A stretch of DNA of 64,000 nucleotides from Escherichia phage vB_EcoM_LNA4, in sequence record MZ311864.1. The stretch is one strand, 5' to 3'. Positions 17,029 through 23,163 of this stretch are shown here, piece by piece (position 1 is the first letter of the stretch; each line of letters begins with the position of its first letter). The notes beneath the pieces were generated by a model that saw only the letters and a program-made list of their open reading frames with translations, was not told the DNA's origin and did not search any database. The position numbers and the translations under genes were made by a program.

Positions 17029-17105
17029 GGTTCTGTAGCTTAGCTGGTTAGAGCGCTTCCCTCATAAGGAAGAGGTCGCAGGTTCAATCCCTGCCAGAAC
17101 TACCA
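17029..17105 (+). tRNA. tRNA-Met/Ile2 (anticodon CAT)
   Basis: 7-bp acceptor stem, anticodon loop CTCATAA, T-loop GGTTCAATCC, encoded CCA. Confidence 0.6.
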
Positions 17106-17119
17106 AACGAGGAGAGACC

Positions 17120-17287
17120 ATGAATAAGATTTATGATTTTTTCGGAATTGGTAAACCCAAGAGCATGTCTTCAAACTGGGACTCCAGAATGGACTCATCT
17201 GTAGGGAATAGTAATTCTGTGTACGACCGTTATGATGTTTCACTCGGTCTTCATAAAGAAACGAAAAAAGATTCAAAAAACGATTGA
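17120..17287 (+). CDS. small hypothetical protein
   Basis: 55-aa ORF with GAGGAGAG Shine-Dalgarno, directly after the first tRNA. Confidence 0.4.
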   Translation: MNKIYDFFGIGKPKSMSSNWDSRMDSSVGNSNSVYDRYDVSLGLHKETKKDSKND

Positions 17288-17312
17288 CAAAGGAAGTACG
17301 AGATATTAGTAT
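17284..17312 (+). promoter_or_regulatory. sigma70-like promoter TTGACA-N17-TAGTAT
   Basis: -35 at 17284-17289, -10 at 17307-17312; upstream of the ORF at 17357. Confidence 0.5.
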
Positions 17313-17356
17313 TACCAACGTCAACAAGACATTAGCAAATAGAGGAGAAATACAAC

Positions 17357-17686
17357 ATGGCTAAGAAAAACGCAACTAAGAAAGTTTCTGCAATCGACGC
17401 AATCAAACAGCCTTTCCAGTTTGAGTCGAAGTCAACGCAGACTCACTCTGCACCACACGATGTTCGTCTGGGCGGTGTAACCAAGACCGTTTCCGTTCGT
17501 AAAAAGCGTCGTGATGAAGACGGCAACGTTGTATTCATCTGGGAATCCGTTTCCCGCGTTGAAGGTGGTCAGGTAATTTCTGCCTCACACCGTGTTCGCA
17601 CTGGCAAGACCAAGCGTGAACGCGCTGGTAAAGCCAAAGACGCTAAGGTTGTTGAAGCCGTAGCGCCGAAAGGTAAGAAGAAGTAA
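17357..17686 (+). CDS. basic Lys/Arg-rich hypothetical protein
   Basis: 109-aa ORF with AGAGGAG Shine-Dalgarno and highly basic termini. Confidence 0.5.
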   Translation: MAKKNATKKVSAIDAIKQPFQFESKSTQTHSAPHDVRLGGVTKTVSVRKKRRDEDGNVVFIWESVSRVEGGQVISASHRVRTGKTKRERAGKAKDAKVVEAVAPKGKKK

Positions 17687-17894
17687 TAAAGCTTTACTGA
17701 ACTGATGGTTTGTGTTGAAATGGCGCTGTCGAAAATTGTCGGCAGGGTCATAGTAAACAGTCGCCCCAGTTCGGTAATTAATTCCTCCGGCATGGGGATA
17801 GACGAAGCTGGCTGCGGCGATGCGTCTTAAAATAAAGGGCTGCGGCAACCGTGACGATTCCGTGCAACGTCTTGAAAAACACGGACCTGATTTC

Positions 17895-17970
17895 GGGGTA
17901 TTAACTCAGCGGTTAGAGTAGCGGCCACTTAAGCCGAAGGTCGAAGGTTCGAATCCTTCATGCCCCACCA
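17895..17970 (+). tRNA. tRNA (anticodon loop CACTTAA; candidate Lys-CTT with A33)
   Basis: Clean acceptor, D and T arms (GGTTCGAATCC) and CCA; position 33 is A rather than U. Confidence 0.45.
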
Positions 17971-18084
17971 TTTTTTGGAATGAGAGAGATACGGGTTCGA
18001 CTCCCGTTCTTGCTGGCCCGGCTCGCGTAATGGCGCAGGGCGATAGCTTAAATGGACGAAAGTGCTCTTGTTTCAAAAAACTTC

Positions 18085-18113
18085 TTGACAATGAAATTTT
18101 TAAAGTGTAGTAT
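18085..18113 (+). promoter_or_regulatory. sigma70-like promoter TTGACA-N17-TAGTAT
   Basis: -35 at 18085-18090, -10 at 18108-18113; upstream of the ORF at 18145. Confidence 0.5.
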
Positions 18114-18144
18114 CACAACTCAATTTTACGCAAAGGAGAACTTA

Positions 18145-18756
18145 ATGTCTGATTCTAAAACTGTAATTTCTGTAACTGAACGCGCTACCAAAGCTGTTGC
18201 AACTGCTGCAACTGGCCTGAGTAAGGTTGTTGCTGAACTGCAATCTCTGGCTGAAGGCTCTGAACGTATCAGTCAAGAAATTCAGTTCAAACAGCAAGAG
18301 CTTGGCAATATCGAAGTCCAGTTCAATGAAAAACTGGCTGAAGAAAAATCTAAGCTGAAGATCAAAGTTCTTGAAAATGAAGACGGTGTACTGAACACCC
18401 TTCTGAAGGCTCGTGGCCTTGTAGCTATCGAACCGGGTGTTGTAGATGGTCTGCGTCACGAACTGGCTGTCGCTCAGTCTGGCAATGAAGATGCGATCAA
18501 TACAGCAGTTGATGCTGCAAAACGTTCTGCTGCTATCGAACTGAACGCTGTTAAGTCCAATCTGGAATCAGCACACAAAGTTGCGATTGCTGAACTGAAC
18601 GCCAATACCAAGGCAGACAAAGATCGTATCGCAATGCTGACCGAACAGCTTGAAGCTGCCCGTGCAGACCTGAAAGCAGAACGCGAAACCCGTCTGGAAA
18701 TCGCTAAAGCTGATGCGAACCGCCAGGGTGTTGTAGTTAACACTGGTAAAAACTAA
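18145..18756 (+). CDS. coiled-coil hypothetical protein
   Basis: Track ORF trimmed to ATG 18145 with AAAGGAG Shine-Dalgarno; Ala/Glu/Lys-rich heptad-like sequence. Confidence 0.5.
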   Translation: MSDSKTVISVTERATKAVATAATGLSKVVAELQSLAEGSERISQEIQFKQQELGNIEVQFNEKLAEEKSKLKIKVLENEDGVLNTLLKARGLVAIEPGVVDGLRHELAVAQSGNEDAINTAVDAAKRSAAIELNAVKSNLESAHKVAIAELNANTKADKDRIAMLTEQLEAARADLKAERETRLEIAKADANRQGVVVNTGKN

Positions 18757-18765
18757 TACCGCCGT

Positions 18766-18783
18766 GCCGACACGGATGTCGGC
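18766..18783 (+). terminator. GC hairpin (terminator-like, no T-run)
   Basis: GCCGACA-CGGA-TGTCGGC immediately after the stop at 18756. Confidence 0.3.
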
Positions 18784-18833
18784 AAACATTTGAAGTACAT
18801 TTAAAATTTAAAGTTCATTGAGAGGAGAATTAT

Positions 18834-19481
18834 ATGTCTACTAAGATTTCTGTAACCCGCGCTCTGGCAACTCTGACCAAGATCGAGGGCAAGATCGAAA
18901 AGCGTATCGACCAGTTGAACACTGTTCAGATCGCAAAAGGGACGGAAGATCACCGTTCGATCCCAGGTTCTCTGGTTAGCATTGCTGACTTCGAGACTTC
19001 TGCTAAGGCAGACTTCCAAGGCCTGAAAGACCTGCTGGCAGTACGTGATGAACTGAAGGCGAAAGTTGTTCAGTCCAACGCAGTAACTCTGGTCACCGTT
19101 GGTGGTAAAGAGATGACAGTTGCTCAGGCAATTGAAGGCAAGCGCACAGTTGCTTACAAAGAACTGCTCCTGTCCAAGCTGAAAGCGCAGTACAACTTCG
19201 CTCAGAAGCGCCTTGATAAAGAAGTCGCTGACTTCGAAACCAAGCTGGAACAGGCCCGTGCTCCGTACATCAGTCGTGACAAAGCGCCTGATCCAGAGCA
19301 GATTAAGACGGTAGAAGGTCCGACCCGTCTGATGAGCACACCGTCTATCGTTGACCCGCTGGGTCTGGCAGACGTAATCCGAAATCTGGAGACAGAGATC
19401 GAAGACTTCAAATCCAACGTTGACTTTGTGTTGTCCGAGTCTAACGCACGGACTGAAGTGGAGATTGAGGGATCAATCTAA
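18834..19481 (+). CDS. hypothetical protein
   Basis: 215-aa ORF with GAGAGGAG Shine-Dalgarno. Confidence 0.5.
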   Translation: MSTKISVTRALATLTKIEGKIEKRIDQLNTVQIAKGTEDHRSIPGSLVSIADFETSAKADFQGLKDLLAVRDELKAKVVQSNAVTLVTVGGKEMTVAQAIEGKRTVAYKELLLSKLKAQYNFAQKRLDKEVADFETKLEQARAPYISRDKAPDPEQIKTVEGPTRLMSTPSIVDPLGLADVIRNLETEIEDFKSNVDFVLSESNARTEVEIEGSI

Positions 19482-19489
19482 AATAACTT

Positions 19490-19521
19490 GAGGAATTATG
19501 AAAAACATCTTGTAATTCCTC
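19490..19521 (+). terminator. hairpin GAGGAATTA/TAATTCCTC (terminator-like)
   Basis: 9-bp inverted repeat with a 14-nt loop, 9 nt after the stop at 19481. Confidence 0.3.
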
Positions 19522-19697
19522 TCGTTAACTGATAAAGTTTCAAAATGCTGTTTTTTGGTTAGCGAAGTTGGAAACATCTTGCCTCTACCGAGGCCGGAGG
19601 TTAAACTGCCTCGAACTTAATCATAAGGATGATACTTAACGTATGTTTCCGCAGACCACAACTCTGCCGAAAATATCGAATCGCGAATTCGAAAGAC

Positions 19698-19739
19698 TTC
19701 AAAGTTCAACATTCAAAGATTAAAGTTCAAAGCTTAATG
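19698..19739 (+). repeat. three tandem 14-bp units, each starting TTCAAAG
   Basis: TTCAAAG at 19698, 19712 and 19726 (14-bp period) within a 340-bp ORF-free region. Confidence 0.4.
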
Positions 19740-19868
19740 TTTAAACTTGAAACTTCTAAACCACAAAGCTAAAATTTCGTTGATTATTAAAATCCTGGGT
19801 CAAAGGTCCTTAGCTCACAAGATATGGCTAACCACACCTCCGGGCAGTTAATCGGAAACAGCATTCTT

Positions 19869-19943
19869 GCTCCTAAAGCATAAGTGGCGATGCAGCGGCC
19901 TTGTAAGCCGAGGAAGTGGGTTCGATTCCTACTGGGAGCACCA
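19869..19943 (+). tRNA. tRNA-Thr (TGT)
   Basis: Acceptor GCTCCTA/TGGGAGC, anticodon loop CTTGTAA, T-loop GGGTTCGATTCC, CCA encoded. Confidence 0.6.
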
Positions 19944-19949
19944 AACAAT

Positions 19950-20023
19950 TCGTTGATAGCCTTAGCGGTAAAGGCCCCCTCTGCGCAAGGGGTTCAGTGG
20001 TTCGAATCCACTTCAGCGAGCCA
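19950..20023 (+). tRNA. tRNA-like element, non-canonical (anticodon-position GCG, C37, 3-nt variable loop); possible pseudo-tRNA
   Basis: Good acceptor stem, T-arm AGTGGTTCGAATCCACT and CCA, but the anticodon loop CTGCGCA and D/variable regions are atypical. Confidence 0.3.
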
Positions 20024-20025
20024 AT

Positions 20026-20134
20026 GCAGGGTAGGCGGTTTGTCAACCGCGAGGTCCATCCAGACCTGAAAATAGCTCTCGGCTTGGAGTGGAGAGTGAA
20101 TACATAGGTGGTTAGATTCCACCACCCTGCTCCA
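20026..20134 (+). tRNA. tRNA-like element with a 38-nt insertion between anticodon arm and T-arm
   Basis: 7-bp acceptor GCAGGGT/ACCCTGC, D-stem GCGG/CCGC, anticodon arm AGGTC-CATCCAG-GACCT, T-arm GGTGG-TTAGATT-CCACC and CCA; far too long for a standard tRNA. Confidence 0.25.
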
Positions 20135-20325
20135 AAACATATTTTAAAGTGCATTAGCTCAGATTATTTGATTCACGGACTGATCATCTGTGAGGAGAAT
20201 GAGCCTAACTGAATGGAGTTTCAACGACAAAGGCCACGTTGTTGTAACAGAAGTTCTAAGGTCGTAGAGCGCTGTTCGCGGAGAACAGAGGTCGGTGGAG
20301 TCACCATGCAGCTTAAAATATGTTT

Positions 20326-20403
20326 GCGCTCTTGGTCCAATCTGGTAGAGGCATGGGTGTTAAGCTCCCAGGGTTCCCGGTTCGAGTCCGGGAGGGCGCA
20401 CCA
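20326..20403 (+). tRNA. tRNA with anticodon TAA (Leu-type) in a short-variable-arm scaffold
   Basis: Acceptor GCGCTCT/AGGGCGC, T-arm CCCGG-TTCGAGT-CCGGG, CCA; anticodon stem has a closing mismatch, loop GTTAAGC. Confidence 0.4.
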
Positions 20404-20406
20404 GAA

Positions 20407-20481
20407 CGGGGTATAGTCTAGAGGATAGGCAGGAGTCTTCTAAACTCCTTTACGTAGGTTCGAATCCTACTACCTCGACCA
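20407..20481 (+). tRNA. tRNA-Arg (TCT)
   Basis: Canonical cloverleaf; anticodon loop CTTCTAA; T-loop GGTTCGAATCC; CCA. Confidence 0.65.
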
Positions 20482-20486
20482 CTTAT

Positions 20487-20560
20487 GCGCGGTTGCTGGA
20501 GTGGCAACAGCTTCGGCTGCAAACCGAATGTCAGGTGTTCGATTCACCTACCGTGCTCCA
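20487..20560 (+). tRNA. tRNA-Cys (GCA)
   Basis: Anticodon arm TTCGG-CTGCAAA-CCGAA; T-arm AGGTG-TTCGATT-CACCT; CCA. Confidence 0.6.
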
Positions 20561-20599
20561 AGTTGTTGATATTTTTTGCTATAAATGATAAAATAACCC

Positions 20600-20628
20600 T
20601 TGACAGAGATATTGAACTCTGATAACAT
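20600..20628 (+). promoter_or_regulatory. sigma70-like promoter TTGACA-N17-TAACAT
   Basis: -35 at 20600-20605, -10 at 20623-20628; upstream of the ORF at 20647. Confidence 0.45.
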
Positions 20629-20646
20629 GAATAAGTGGGGTTAATT

Positions 20647-21012
20647 ATGGCAACAAAACAAGCACTTACCAAGCGTCGTAGAGGTAAGGGTCGTCCTTTA
20701 AAAGAGGAGTCTAACGCAATTCAGCTTGAGAAGAACATTCTTGATCTGAAAACAAAGATGATTGCTATGATCCCTGATGCACATATGGTCCTTCGTGATC
20801 TTATGATGAACAAGGATACTAAAGACAACATCCGTGAGAATATTGCTCGTTTCGTTATTGAGGAAGGTAAGCAAATGCTTTCTGATTACTTCGATGAAGA
20901 GAACGAAAATGAAGAAGAAACAAAGAACGTCGATGATGGTTCCGGAAAGGGCGCTGATAAACCAGTAGCAAAACCTTTCTCAACTGACATCGTACAGTTC
21001 AAACAAGGTTAA
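20647..21012 (+). CDS. hypothetical protein with basic N-terminus
   Basis: Track ORF trimmed to ATG 20647; TKRRRGKGRP basic segment, acidic C-terminal half. Confidence 0.45.
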   Translation: MATKQALTKRRRGKGRPLKEESNAIQLEKNILDLKTKMIAMIPDAHMVLRDLMMNKDTKDNIRENIARFVIEEGKQMLSDYFDEENENEEETKNVDDGSGKGADKPVAKPFSTDIVQFKQG

Positions 21013-21014
21013 TT

Positions 21015-21102
21015 GGGGCGGTTCCCGGAGCGGCAAACGGGCGGGATTGTAAATCCCTTGGCATCGCGTCCTTCGTAGGTTCGAGTCCTACTCGCCCCAC
21101 CA
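21015..21102 (+). tRNA. tRNA-Tyr (GTA), long variable arm
   Basis: Acceptor GGGGCGG/TCGCCCC, anticodon loop TTGTAAA, 17-nt variable arm, T-arm GTAGG-TTCGAGT-CCTAC, CCA. Confidence 0.55.
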
Positions 21103-21108
21103 ATTAAC

Positions 21109-21183
21109 GGGAGTATAGCTCAGTGGTAGAGCAAACGGTCGATAACCGTTAGGTCGCTGGTTCAAGCCCAGCTACTCCCACCA
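21109..21183 (+). tRNA. tRNA-Ile (GAT) with C33
   Basis: Canonical arms (GCTCAGTGGTAGAGC D-arm); anticodon loop TCGATAA has C at position 33. Confidence 0.5.
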
Positions 21184-21189
21184 ATTTAA

Positions 21190-21263
21190 GCGGTTAAGCA
21201 CAAGGTGTGTCGCAGGCCTTCCAAGCCTCGCAGAGTAGGGTTCGATTCCCTCTAACCGCTCCA
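21190..21263 (+). tRNA. tRNA-Gly (TCC)
   Basis: Acceptor GCGGTTA/TAACCGC; anticodon loop CTTCCAA; short D-arm; CCA. Confidence 0.55.
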
Positions 21264-21270
21264 AATAAAT

Positions 21271-21346
21271 GCTCCTATCGGCTAAACGGTCAGGCCGCCA
21301 GACTTTCAATCTGGAAATCCGAGTTCGATTCTCGGTGGGAGTGCCA
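21271..21346 (+). tRNA. tRNA-Glu (TTC)
   Basis: Anticodon arm CCAGA-CTTTCAA-TCTGG; T-arm CCGAG-TTCGATT-CTCGG; CCA. Confidence 0.6.
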
Positions 21347-21353
21347 AATTTGT

Positions 21354-21430
21354 AGGGACTTAGCACAATTGGCTAGTGCAGCGGATTCCAAATCCGCAGG
21401 TTCTGGGTTCGAATCCCAGGGTCCCTGCCA
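21354..21430 (+). tRNA. tRNA-Trp (CCA)
   Basis: Anticodon arm GCGGA-TTCCAAA-TCCGC; T-arm CTGGG-TTCGAAT-CCCAG; CCA. Confidence 0.6.
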
Positions 21431-21435
21431 GTTTT

Positions 21436-21511
21436 AGGAGGATGGTGTAATTGGTTAGCACACGGGGCTTTGATCTCCGGAGTTAGGGTTCGAGTCCTTA
21501 TCTTCCTGCCA
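21436..21511 (+). tRNA. tRNA-Gln (TTG)
   Basis: Anticodon loop CTTTGAT; T-arm TAGGG-TTCGAGT-CCTTA; CCA. Confidence 0.55.
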
Positions 21512-21625
21512 AGTTTGAGTGTTTTTATTTGAAAGCACTCATGCGTGGCCTAAGCATTTATCAGATGATGTTCAACCTGTGACGTTGAGGAAGTGGGAGC
21601 GATACCCACAGGTCACCCCAATTTT

Positions 21626-21718
21626 GGTGGAATGGTCGAGCGGTTTAAGACAGCACCTTGGAAAGGTGTCGGCCCCTTCAAACGGGGTCCGTAGGTTCGA
21701 ATCCTACTTCCACCGCCA
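21626..21718 (+). tRNA. tRNA-Ser (GGA), long variable arm
   Basis: Acceptor GGTGGAA/TTCCACC, anticodon loop TTGGAAA, ~21-nt variable arm, T-loop GGTTCGAATCC, CCA. Confidence 0.6.
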
Positions 21719-21732
21719 CTTTAGGAGATATT

Positions 21733-21888
21733 ATGCAGAAACTTTTGCGTTGTAAAAAGGTATTTGGACGCTGTAAGATTCACGGTAGTAACTGTGGTGT
21801 TGCAGATGAAATTCAATCAATCCCTATTACTCGTGCGAAAGAAAAAGCAGATCTTCGTAAAGAAATTAAAGAACAATTGGAAGATTAA
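21733..21888 (+). CDS. small Cys-rich hypothetical protein
   Basis: 51-aa ORF (track ORF trimmed to ATG 21733, AGGAG Shine-Dalgarno); its last codons overlap the 5' end of the next tRNA. Confidence 0.35.
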   Translation: MQKLLRCKKVFGRCKIHGSNCGVADEIQSIPITRAKEKADLRKEIKEQLED

Positions 21889-21969
21889 CCCTAACGGTAA
21901 GGGATCTCTTTGCTAAAGAGACAGTAGCCCCTGAAAAGGGGTGTGTCAGTTCAAGTCTGACATCTTCCT
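21879..21969 (+). tRNA. tRNA-Ser (GCT), long variable arm, CCA not fully encoded
   Basis: Acceptor GGAAGAT/ATCTTCC, anticodon arm TCTCT-TTGCTAA-AGAGA, variable arm with CCCC/GGGG stem, T-arm GTCAG-TTCAAGT-CTGAC. Confidence 0.5.
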
Positions 21970-21971
21970 CC

Positions 21972-22060
21972 GGAGAGCAGGCTGCATGGTGCAGACTCCG
22001 GTTTGAACCCGGTCCCATCGTAGCGATACGGTGACAGTTCGATTCTGTTGCTCTCCTCCA
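21972..22060 (+). tRNA. tRNA-Ser (TGA), long variable arm
   Basis: Acceptor GGAGAGC/GCTCTCC, anticodon loop TTTGAAC, long variable arm, T-loop AGTTCGATTCT, CCA. Confidence 0.5.
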
Positions 22061-22065
22061 AATAT

Positions 22066-22152
22066 GGGTTGGTAGCCAAGCGGCGACGTATGTCTAAGGC
22101 ACTCGACTTTTAATCGAGGGATCGTTGGGTTCGAATCCCACCCGACCCACCA
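22066..22152 (+). tRNA. tRNA-Lys (TTT) with expanded D region
   Basis: Acceptor GGGTTGG/CCGACCC, canonical anticodon arm CTCGA-CTTTTAA-TCGAG, T-loop GGGTTCGAATCCC, CCA; about 10 extra nt in the D region. Confidence 0.45.
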
Positions 22153-22157
22153 TACAA

Positions 22158-22260
22158 CGGGACGATAGTTTAATGAGGCTGGAAATGCGACGGCAACCAG
22201 CGGAGCAGAATGACGGGCATCCAGGACCGTAGGTGAGGTGCAAACCCTCAGATCCCGCCA
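22158..22260 (+). ncRNA. structured tRNA-like element (unclassified)
   Basis: 5' CGGGA pairs with 3' TCCCG followed by CCA; internal hairpins including TGAGG-TGCAAAC-CCTCA; not foldable into a standard cloverleaf by hand. Confidence 0.2.
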
Positions 22261-22321
22261 AATTGAAATAAGTTAAAATAATCCTTGCAAAAGATTGTTT
22301 TCACTGATAAAGTAATTACAT

Positions 22322-22410
22322 GGTTCTTTGACCGAGAGGCCGATGGTAGCAGGCTGTTAACCTGCCTGGAGTAATCCACGACGAAGGTTCGAATCCTTCA
22401 GGAACCGCCA
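22322..22410 (+). tRNA. type-II (Tyr-like scaffold) tRNA with anticodon GTT and discriminator G73 (candidate Asn decoder)
   Basis: Acceptor GGTTCTT/AGGAACC, Tyr-like D region CCGAGAGGCCGATGGTA, anticodon arm GCAGG-CTGTTAA-CCTGC, 17-nt variable arm, T-loop GGTTCGAATCC, G73-CCA. Confidence 0.45.
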
Positions 22411-22453
22411 AATTAGGTGATACGCTACCTTAAGTGCGAACTTGAAAATTAAT

Positions 22454-22530
22454 GGGGCCGTGGCTGACAAGGTAATGGTGCCGCACTGTCTATGCGGAAA
22501 ATGAGGGTTCGATCCCCTTCGGTCTCGCCA
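22454..22530 (+). tRNA. tRNA-Asp (GTC)
   Basis: Acceptor GGGGCCG/CGGTCTC (with G-U pairs), anticodon arm CCGCA-CTGTCTA-TGCGG, T-loop GGGTTCGATCCCC, CCA. Confidence 0.5.
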
Positions 22531-22713
22531 ATTTGATATGTTGATGTAAATTGCCGGAAGGCACTCAAAATGAGTTCGACATATCAAACCAAATACGCTC
22601 TTGCAGGAAAGGTTAGCCTCCCTGCAATGTCACACTAGGTGATCAGAGCGGATCAAATTAGCTAGCCAGCGATACCAGTTGCAGTGTCTGGGACAATTAA
22701 AATTCTGCACCTT

Positions 22714-22791
22714 CGGAGCGTAGCGCAGTCTGGTCAGCGTGGGAGCCTTGGATGCTCTGGGTCGCAGGTTCGAATCCTGCCGCTCCGACCA
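22714..22791 (+). tRNA. tRNA-Pro (TGG)
   Basis: Acceptor CGGAGCG/CGCTCCG, anticodon loop CTTGGAT, T-loop GGTTCGAATCC, CCA. Confidence 0.6.
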
Positions 22792-22796
22792 ATTTA

Positions 22797-22872
22797 GCAG
22801 GTATAGTTCAACTGGACAGAGCATCAGTTTACGAAGCTGAGAATCGGGGTTCGAATCCCTGTATCTGCACCA
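22797..22872 (+). tRNA. tRNA-Arg (ACG)
   Basis: Acceptor GCAGGTA/TATCTGC, anticodon arm TCAGT-TTACGAA-GCTGA, T-loop GGGGTTCGAATCCCT, CCA. Confidence 0.6.
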
Positions 22873-22907
22873 AATTAAGGCTTGGATTTCTTCGGACCCA
22901 AGCGCAC

Positions 22908-22984
22908 GGGCGATTGATGGAATTGGTATACGTGTCGGATTTAGATTCCGAATTTTGGGGGTTCGAGTCCCCTGTCGCCCACCA
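22908..22984 (+). tRNA. tRNA with anticodon TAG (Leu-type) in a short-variable-arm scaffold
   Basis: Acceptor GGGCGAT/GTCGCCC, anticodon arm TCGGA-TTTAGAT-TCCGA, 5-nt variable loop, T-loop GGGGGTTCGAGTCCCCT, A73-CCA. Confidence 0.5.
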
Positions 22985-22991
22985 ATCCTTC

Positions 22992-23067
22992 GGGACTGTA
23001 GCTCAGTTGGTAGAGCACCTGATTGAAGATCAGGGTGTCGGTGGTTCGAATCCACTCGGTCCCGCCA
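22992..23067 (+). tRNA. tRNA-Phe (GAA)
   Basis: Textbook cloverleaf: D-arm GCTCAGTTGGTAGAGC, anticodon arm CCTGA-TTGAAGA-TCAGG, T-loop GGTTCGAATCC, CCA. Confidence 0.7.
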
Positions 23068-23073
23068 AATAAT

Positions 23074-23146
23074 TGCGAGCTAGAATTCTGGTGAATTCAC
23101 GAGTCTCATAAGCTTGTTCAGAGGGGTTCGATTCCGCTGCTCGCAA
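23074..23146 (+). tRNA. tRNA-Met/Ile2 (CAT), CCA not encoded
   Basis: Acceptor TGCGAGC/GCTCGCA, D-arm GAAT/ATTC, anticodon loop CTCATAA, T-loop GGGGTTCGATTCC. Confidence 0.5.
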
Positions 23147-23163
23147 CTAACAGAGGACTTAAT

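Follow-up and report, generated by a model that had tools for sequence, protein, structure and literature searches.

Leucine tRNA genes without a long variable arm in the tRNA gene cluster of Escherichia phage vB_EcoM_LNA4

The stretch of DNA analysed here, referred to as the window, comprises 64,000 nucleotides (nt) of Escherichia phage vB_EcoM_LNA4 (sequence record MZ311864.1), which belongs to the genus Seunavirus of the Vequintavirinae. Two genes of its tRNA cluster, tRNA-Leu(UAA) and tRNA-Leu(UAG), have leucine anticodons together with a variable loop of only 5 nt. An earlier note, made from the sequence alone, had described both as carrying A73 and good acceptor and T arms, had pointed out that bacterial tRNA-Leu is normally long-armed, and had left two alternatives, unusual type-I leucine tRNAs or a wrong assignment of the anticodon. 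When analyzed by ARAGORN, by the Rfam tRNA model (RF00005) and by manual segmentation, the description proved correct in every detail, and ARAGORN returned both genes as tRNA-Leu (taa and tag). The rule on bacterial tRNA-Leu also holds for the host: the five E. coli K-12 Leu isoacceptors compared are 85–87 nt long, with variable regions of 13–15 nt, against the 5 nt of the phage genes. No long-arm Leu tRNA was found by ARAGORN in the whole window.

Both genes match the Rfam model over the full length, with scores of 40.8 bits for Leu(UAA) and 50.8 bits for Leu(UAG), the gathering score of the model being 29 bits. Segmented from the acceptor stem to the CCA end, Leu(UAA) reads GCGCTCT TG GTCCAATCTGGTAGAGGC A TGGGT GTTAAGC TCCCA GGGTT CCCGG TTCGAGT CCGGG AGGGCGC A CCA, and Leu(UAG) reads GGGCGAT TG ATGGAATTGGTATACGT G TCGGA TTTAGAT TCCGA ATTTT GGGGG TTCGAGT CCCCT GTCGCCC A CCA. 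Common to both, in the ARAGORN cloverleaves as well as in the manual segmentation, are an acceptor stem of 7 base pairs (bp), a 5-bp T stem with the T loop TTCGAGT, a 7-nt anticodon loop with U33, A73, an encoded CCA and the 5-nt variable loop. The anticodon loops are placed identically by ARAGORN and by the Rfam model. Neither gene features the variable region of more than 10 nt, with a stem-loop, that characterizes class II tRNAs. The D arms are nonetheless class II in form, with a 3-bp stem, a large loop and a mismatch between positions 13 and 22: in Leu(UAA) the mismatch is C13:A22 and the D loop is AAUCUGGUAGA, in Leu(UAG) the mismatch is G13:A22 and the D loop is AAUUGGUAUA. The combination of a sub-threshold score, broken stems and a lack of conservation beyond the surrounding DNA, by which tRNA pseudogenes are recognized, is found in neither gene. 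Positions of the two genes and of their parts are reported in Table 1, along with those of other features discussed below.

Table 1. Positions of the two short-arm Leu genes and of other tRNA features. Positions refer to the window, except for the three Leu(CAA) genes in the last rows, for which the position within the indicated locus is given.
Feature	Position	Strand	Description
tRNA-Leu(UAA)	20326-20403	+	78 nt, class I shape; ARAGORN and Rfam RF00005
Leu(UAA), anticodon	20361-20363		
Leu(UAA), variable loop	20371-20375		GGGTT
Leu(UAA), A73	20400		
Leu(UAA), CCA	20401-20403		
tRNA-Leu(UAG)	22908-22984	+	77 nt, class I shape; ARAGORN and Rfam RF00005
Leu(UAG), anticodon	22942-22944		
Leu(UAG), variable loop	22952-22956		ATTTT
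Leu(UAG), A73	22981		
Leu(UAG), CCA	22982-22984		
Phage tRNA gene cluster	17029-23147	+	22 tRNAs (ARAGORN, default settings), at least 3 more (Rfam or relaxed ARAGORN)
Gly(UCC)-like tRNA	21189-21260	+	missed by ARAGORN; weak Rfam match (tRNA-Sec model, 29 bits)
His(GUG) tRNA	21545-21620	+	called at relaxed ARAGORN thresholds only
tRNA with UUU (Lys) anticodon loop	22066-22149	+	13-nt insertion in the D loop; Rfam 50.5 bits
tRNA-Asn(GUU)	22322-22410	+	89 nt, long variable arm CTGGAGTAATCCACGAC, G73
Last tRNA-Met(CAU)	23074-23147	+	no encoded CCA, irregular T arm; Rfam 37.6 bits
Short-arm tRNA-Leu(CAA), L176	3732-3808		
Short-arm tRNA-Leu(CAA), L197	4839-4915		
Short-arm tRNA-Leu(CAA), L156	7853-7929		

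In E. coli, leucine identity depends critically on A73, and neither the anticodon nor the long arm is needed; the essential elements for leucyl-tRNA synthetase (LeuRS) are the A15-U48 Levitt pair, G18G19, A20a and the contacts G18:U55, G19-C56 and U54:A58 (Giege & Eriani 2023, PMC9976931). All of the listed elements are found in both phage genes, which carry U8, A14, A15, G18G19, U20-A20a, U48, U54, U55, C56, A58 and A73, where the numbering of 20a hinges on the D stem being read as 3 bp, as drawn by ARAGORN. Each gene combines a Leu anticodon in a 7-nt loop with U33, A73 and the corner elements, as expected for a functional tRNA-Leu. The G3:U70 pair, which would indicate Ala, and the long arm, which would indicate Ser, are absent from both. 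Overall, the surrogate tests give no sign of another isotype or of a pseudogene.

The D arms were analyzed by searching public collections with the D-arm motif alone, and by tallying the anticodons which accompany it in ARAGORN-predicted tRNAs. The Leu(UAG) motif, 17 nt long (TGATGGAATTGGYATAC, positions 8–24), matched at least 120 viral contigs of IMG/VR, where 121 of the 122 tRNAs containing it have a Leu anticodon (TAG, TAA, CAA, CAG, AAG or GAG). When GTDB was searched, with one genome per species, 51 of 52 motif-bearing tRNAs turned out to be Leu. The looser motif derived from Leu(UAA), TGGTNNAATCTGGYAGANNC, is found in 19 tRNAs, all of them Leu; the distinct forms among them number 4 with a short arm and 9 with a long arm, and the T arm of one of the latter, a Leu(UAA) (L269), is the same as in the window gene. 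The sole non-Leu tRNA of the 122, on IMG/VR contig L144, features a Gln anticodon (TTG/UUG) along with U1-A72 and G73, and looks like a Leu-type body switched to glutamine identity.

The two genes are shared with related phages. The tRNA region is 95–97% identical to those of Escherichia phage 4MG, Cronobacter phage GAP31 and Enterobacter phage EC152, all Vequintavirinae of the genus Seunavirus, and a 24.8-kb stretch of structural genes is 94.5% identical to EC152 and GAP31. Comparison with related phages, a check named in the earlier note, shows that both Leu genes are 100% identical in GAP31 and EC152, where they are annotated as tRNA-Leu, in agreement with ARAGORN; Leu(UAG) is also 100% identical in 4MG, the Leu(UAA) gene of which is 88.5% identical. 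Since identical genes are present in GAP31 and EC152 and, for UAG, in 4MG as well, the short-arm Leu genes are far beyond chance. At larger distances, Leu(UAA) is 96–98.6% identical in Klebsiella and Proteus phages of the genus Mydovirus, and 86% in T5-like Klebsiella phages of the genus Sugarlandvirus. Leu(UAG) is 85.7–89.6% identical in other Vequintavirinae (85.7% in Av-05) and 75–77% in more than 100 T5/BF23-like Demerecviridae, with partial matches in Vibrio and Aeromonas phages.

The gene order of the tRNA cluster is the same in EC152 and GAP31 as in the window. Between 22872 and 22992, the window is without the tRNA-Ala(UGC) and tRNA-Val(UAC) genes which flank Leu(UAG) in GAP31 and EC152 (L002, 6613-7044). 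The tRNA content thus differs between phages that are about 94.5% identical, yet both short-arm Leu genes are retained. In Klebsiella phage Seu621, a Mydovirus, the same slot (Ala-Leu-Val-Phe), preceded by the same upstream GCGCAC, contains an 86-nt long-arm Leu(UAG) (L006, 6446-6531), which matches E. coli leuW exactly in the D arm and in the anticodon arm; this looks like a replacement by a host-like gene.

Conservation of the fold was evaluated on a set of 80 distinct short-arm relatives. Every helix position is paired in 92.5–100% of them, by 3 to 8 types of base pair each; A15-U48 is present in all 80, A73 in 79, and the 26:44 pair is only A:G (46 cases) or G:A (34 cases). When the window and Av-05 copies are compared, every difference located in a stem keeps the pairing, with two double compensatory changes and several G-U pairs turned into Watson-Crick ones. 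Leu(UAG) shows every trait of the T5/BF23 tRNAL1 type: the D arm UGAUGGAAUUGGYAUAC, a 5-nt variable loop RUYYU ending in U48, a purine-purine 26:44 pair, A73 and a Leu anticodon. Leu(UAA) has the tRNAL1-type architecture, but its own D arm (GUCCAAUCUGGUAGAGGC) and GGGUU loop, and groups with the Sugarland, Mydovirus and 4MG genes as a smaller sister group. Both genes are members of a lineage of short-arm Leu tRNAs that is old, widespread among phages and also represented in T5-like ones.

The tRNAL1 gene of phage BF23 reads GCGTGAT TG ATGGAATTGGCATACAT A CCGTC CTTAGAA GTCGG GTTTT GAGGG TTCGAAT CCCTT GTCACGC A CCA. Like the window Leu(UAG), to which it is 76.7% identical, BF23/T5 tRNAL1 is 77 nt long, with the D arm UG AUGG AAUUGG(C/U)AUA CAU, the anticodon UAG, A37, A73 and, in BF23, a 5-nt variable loop, GUUUU. 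BF23 and T5 are siphoviruses of the Demerecviridae, whereas the window phage is a myovirus of the Vequintavirinae, and acceptor and anticodon stems differ between their genes, with compensation. A note on tRNAL1 in the curated BF23 tRNA-region record states that 'replacement of the anticodon with CUA sequence converts this tRNA into effective amber suppressor'. Suppression by the CUA derivative implies that BF23 tRNAL1 is matured, charged independently of its anticodon, and used on the E. coli ribosome; this function is on record for the BF23 gene only, not for the window genes. The Leu(UAG) of phage PVP-SE1 (L024) has acceptor, D and T arms as in the window, and an anticodon arm as in BF23 (CCGTC CTTAGAA GTCGG), which suggests a modular exchange between tRNA genes of Vequintavirinae and T5-like phages.

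Relative to the host, the phage genes share with E. coli leuW (UAG) and leuZ (UAA) the anticodons, A73, U8, G9, the 3-bp D stem with the 13:22 mismatch, A14 A15, G18G19 followed by UAGA or UAUA, U48 and a TTCRAGT T loop. Yet blastn searches with each gene in 5,426 complete E. coli genomes gave zero matches, even at E=10, so that there is no evidence of a recent capture from the host.

Loss of the arm is specific to leucine. According to ARAGORN, the viral loci containing short-arm Leu tRNAs encode 127 long and 5 short Ser tRNAs, and 49 long and 3 short Tyr tRNAs, against 188 short and 49 long Leu tRNAs; selection of the loci by the D-arm motif biases the last of these counts, but not those for Ser and Tyr. 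Short Leu tRNAs with different D-arm sequences are also encoded there: of 61 additional distinct ones, 58 carry A73. TyrRS depends on the long arm. For cytosolic tRNA-Ser, the long arm is reported in a review as the major identity element. Since SerRS needs the long arm and LeuRS does not, the arm would have vanished only where the synthetase tolerates its loss.

In GTDB, the 37 long-arm Leu tRNAs bearing the motif are solitary (median of 1 tRNA per 8-kb locus), while the 15 with a short arm come from loci rich in tRNA genes (median of 10); several of the latter are on small contigs of metagenome-assembled genomes, which resemble phage tRNA arrays. Tumebacillus avium, T. lipolyticus and Effusibacillus consociatus contain almost identical, 77-nt short-arm tRNA-Leu(CAA) genes with A73 (Table 1), within ordinary-looking chromosomal tRNA operons. 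Because of this chromosomal location, the short-arm design is not strictly viral, and these genes are a cellular exception to the long-arm rule.

It is very probable that both window genes are working, class I-shaped leucine tRNAs, which have lost the long arm and would be charged by the LeuRS of the host. The reasons lie in structure and scores, LeuRS identity elements, D-arm motifs tied to Leu, covariation of the stems, restriction of the arm loss to Leu, function of the BF23 homologue, and retention of both genes amid tRNA turnover.

A number of observations weigh against this reading. The D arm of Leu(UAA) is nearest to that of E. coli Trp (0.81, vs 0.76 for Leu), that of Leu(UAG) being nearest to Leu (0.80), and whole-sequence identity is 0.63–0.67 to several E. 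coli isotypes, without singling out Leu. The motif test fixes positions 8–24, so that only anticodon, position 73, variable loop and stems are independent of the search. Position 37 is swapped with respect to the host genes: in the phage UAG gene it is A37, after G36, vs G37 in leuW, and in the phage UAA gene it is G37, after A36, vs A37 in leuZ; among the 80 short-arm relatives, 78 have A at this position. Overall, the anticodon loops differ from those of leuW and leuZ at positions 32, 37 and 38. The anticodon arm of Leu(UAA) is also odd, with a U31-U39 mismatch, and with G32 and C38, which are able to pair and would shrink the loop; the copies in 4MG and Sugarland feature a regular arm, TGAGG CTTAAGA CTTCA. 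In single-sequence folding, the minimum-free-energy structure of Leu(UAG) is the cloverleaf, while that of Leu(UAA) is not; the same holds for the long-arm Seu621 control and for the short-arm Sugarland homologue, and Z-scores are weak throughout (-0.0 to -1.7), so that the folding is uninformative. Finally, the BF23 suppressor record names no inserted amino acid. A nearest-neighbour isotype classifier, applied to D arms and to whole sequences with 32 distinct E. coli K-12 tRNAs of all 20 isotypes as reference, was dropped, because most control tRNAs of the window missed their own isotype.

The similarity values may be taken to indicate a different isotype, with either the anticodon call being off or another synthetase charging the tRNAs, so that Leu codons would be read ambiguously. 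A class I body with A73 indeed resembles many non-Leu tRNAs, overall similarity to E. coli tRNAs gives no preference for Leu, and A35-A36 of the UAA anticodon are two of the three Phe anticodon bases. A misassigned anticodon, the second alternative of the earlier note, is however contradicted by the agreement of the two programs on the loops, and by the near-exclusive occurrence of the D-arm motifs with Leu anticodons and, in addition, with A73. The only non-Leu member of the family has also changed to G73 and U1-A72, as expected if identity tracks the anticodon; neither the Ala pair nor the Ser arm is present; and a CUA anticodon leaves the BF23 homologue functional. By the identity rules (reviewed in PMC9976931), most of the other E. 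coli synthetases need anticodon bases of their own, which UAA and UAG do not provide. A wrong isotype, or charging by another synthetase, is judged highly improbable. The first alternative, type-I Leu tRNAs, is the one supported by A73, by the LeuRS identity elements and by the Leu-only D-arm motifs. The term "unusual" is justified against cellular tRNAs, but not among phage tRNA clusters, where short-arm Leu genes are common, and are present in the T5/BF23 records.

The irregularities of Leu(UAA) could instead be signs of decay, if the genes were unused remnants of class II genes from which the arm has been deleted. Leu(UAA) scores lower with Rfam than any other type I tRNA of the cluster, its anticodon arm has the mismatch and the possible G32-C38 pairing described above, and other tRNAs of the cluster are irregular too. 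Against this, both scores exceed the gathering score, and no break is seen in the acceptor and T stems. GAP31, EC152 and the window, which elsewhere are about 94.5% identical, have these genes in identical form, and keep them while neighbouring tRNAs come and go. Moreover, changes are compensatory across genera, covariation is strong in the 80 relatives, and the BF23 homologue is functional. That the two genes are non-functional is hardly credible.

As leucine tRNAs without the long arm, the phage genes look like the natural equivalent of an engineered one. A minimal E. coli tRNA-Leu, devoid of the long arm and retaining A73 and the D/T-loop contacts, is still leucylated by LeuRS (PMC9976931). 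The engineered molecule was tested in vitro and is also devoid of the anticodon arm, while each phage tRNA is a full class I cloverleaf that selection has shaped. In animal mitochondria, tRNA-Leu is likewise without the long arm, its identity depending mainly on A73 and A14 (PMC9976931). The mitochondrial molecules are structurally relaxed and served by a dedicated mitochondrial LeuRS, while the phage tRNAs have canonical D and T loops and would be served by the bacterial LeuRS of the host. No sequence relationship to animal mitochondrial tRNA-Leu was found, and none was expected.

The Leu genes would be transcribed inside the phage tRNA cluster, and then processed. The next tRNA gene is only 3 nt away from Leu(UAA) (Arg-UCU, at 20407) and 7 nt away from Leu(UAG) (Phe, at 22992); because of this spacing, co-transcription and processing with the neighbouring tRNAs are probable. 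The host enterobacterial LeuRS would then charge both, by reading A73 and the corner formed by D and T loops (U8-A14, A15-U48, G18G19, A20a, U54-A58, U55 and C56), and by ignoring anticodon and long arm. In phage protein synthesis, the UAA tRNA is predicted to decode UUR and the UAG tRNA to decode CUN. Leu codons in 64 long open reading frames of the window are CUG (33.5%), CUU (30.2%), CUC (11.8%), UUG (10.4%), UUA (8.2%) and CUA (5.9%). CUU usage is about 10% in E. coli, so that this codon is far commoner in the window; a modified U34 could enable a tRNA with the UAG anticodon to assist in reading it. Compensation of codon usage was considered as a reason for the presence of the genes, and set aside, as it says nothing on the missing arm.

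The loss of the arm may be neutral streamlining, or it may be adaptive. One adaptive version does not replace leucine charging, but adds a purpose to it: arm loss and altered anticodon loops would allow escape from host toxins which recognize class II tRNAs or cut tRNA-Leu, so that Leu decoding would persist once host tRNA-Leu is inactivated. Toxins of this kind are described: MenT3 requires a long variable loop for efficient tRNA modification, a preprint suggests that the anti-phage toxin AbiEii prefers long-arm class II tRNAs, the G1-U33 portion of tRNA-Leu is the most abundant tRNA-derived fragment with the HEPN nuclease of Retron-Kva2 (Klebsiella), and the Gifsy-1 terminase cleaves tRNA-Leu in Salmonella. 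The differences from leuW and leuZ at positions 32, 37 and 38, with the prevalence of A37 among the short-arm relatives, would also fit, and the host-like long-arm Leu(UAG) in the same slot of a Mydovirus phage indicates turnover there. Yet the long arm is still present on the Ser and Tyr tRNAs of these phages, and would leave them exposed to an arm-directed toxin; the simpler explanation, loss where the synthetase permits it, accounts for the same pattern; and short-arm Leu(CAA) genes are also found in the ordinary chromosomal operons of Tumebacillus and Effusibacillus. A role in counter-defence is considered unlikely.

Some other tRNAs of the cluster are irregular (Table 1). Asn(GUU) shows the opposite anomaly to that of the Leu genes. 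Its long-arm form is kept in GAP31, EC152, Av-05 (91 nt) and Seu621 (85 nt), while in T5-like phages tRNA-Asn is normal, at 78 nt. Among E. coli tRNAs, the window gene comes closest to Tyr (0.69 identity): the T arm is the same, and the anticodon arm nearly so, which suggests a Tyr gene remodelled to Asn by way of A36U and A73G; Asn identity is reported, in a review, to reside in the anticodon and G73. The tRNA with the UUU anticodon loop is missed by ARAGORN at default settings and called Glu(ctc), 87 nt long, at relaxed ones; in GAP31 and EC152 it is annotated as tRNA-Lys (84–87 nt). The Gly(UCC)-like tRNA is unlike, in sequence, the Gly(UCC) found in the same slot of EC152 and GAP31. It is uncertain whether the last tRNA-Met(CAU) is a working tRNA.

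The finding is largely known biology, as public records already contain the genes and genetic tests have been made on a homologue, that of BF23. No explicit earlier description of short-arm phage tRNA-Leu was found in the open-access literature searched, which leaves out the older T5/BF23 papers, and the phage exception seems to be under-recognised, though the genes are publicly available. As far as annotation is concerned, the matter is settled: both genes stay tRNA-Leu, and are neither pseudogenes nor tRNAs of undetermined isotype. They provide a natural counterpart to the laboratory finding that bacterial LeuRS can dispense with the long arm. In the sampled phage loci it is the Leu tRNAs that go without the arm, while those for Ser and Tyr have it, which fits the reported dependence of SerRS on the arm. 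The common occurrence of arm-less Leu tRNAs in phage tRNA clusters runs counter to what a recent review states in general terms, and this wider pattern could be worth a brief systematic survey.

Changes in the anticodon loop are already described for phage tRNAs; if the loss of the arm is in fact an escape from tRNA-directed defences, a structural route of evasion would be added to them. A wider corollary of this reading would be that the textbook rule, by which tRNA-Leu is always long-armed except in animal mitochondria, breaks down in a systematic way in phage tRNA clusters as well as in at least one bacterial family.

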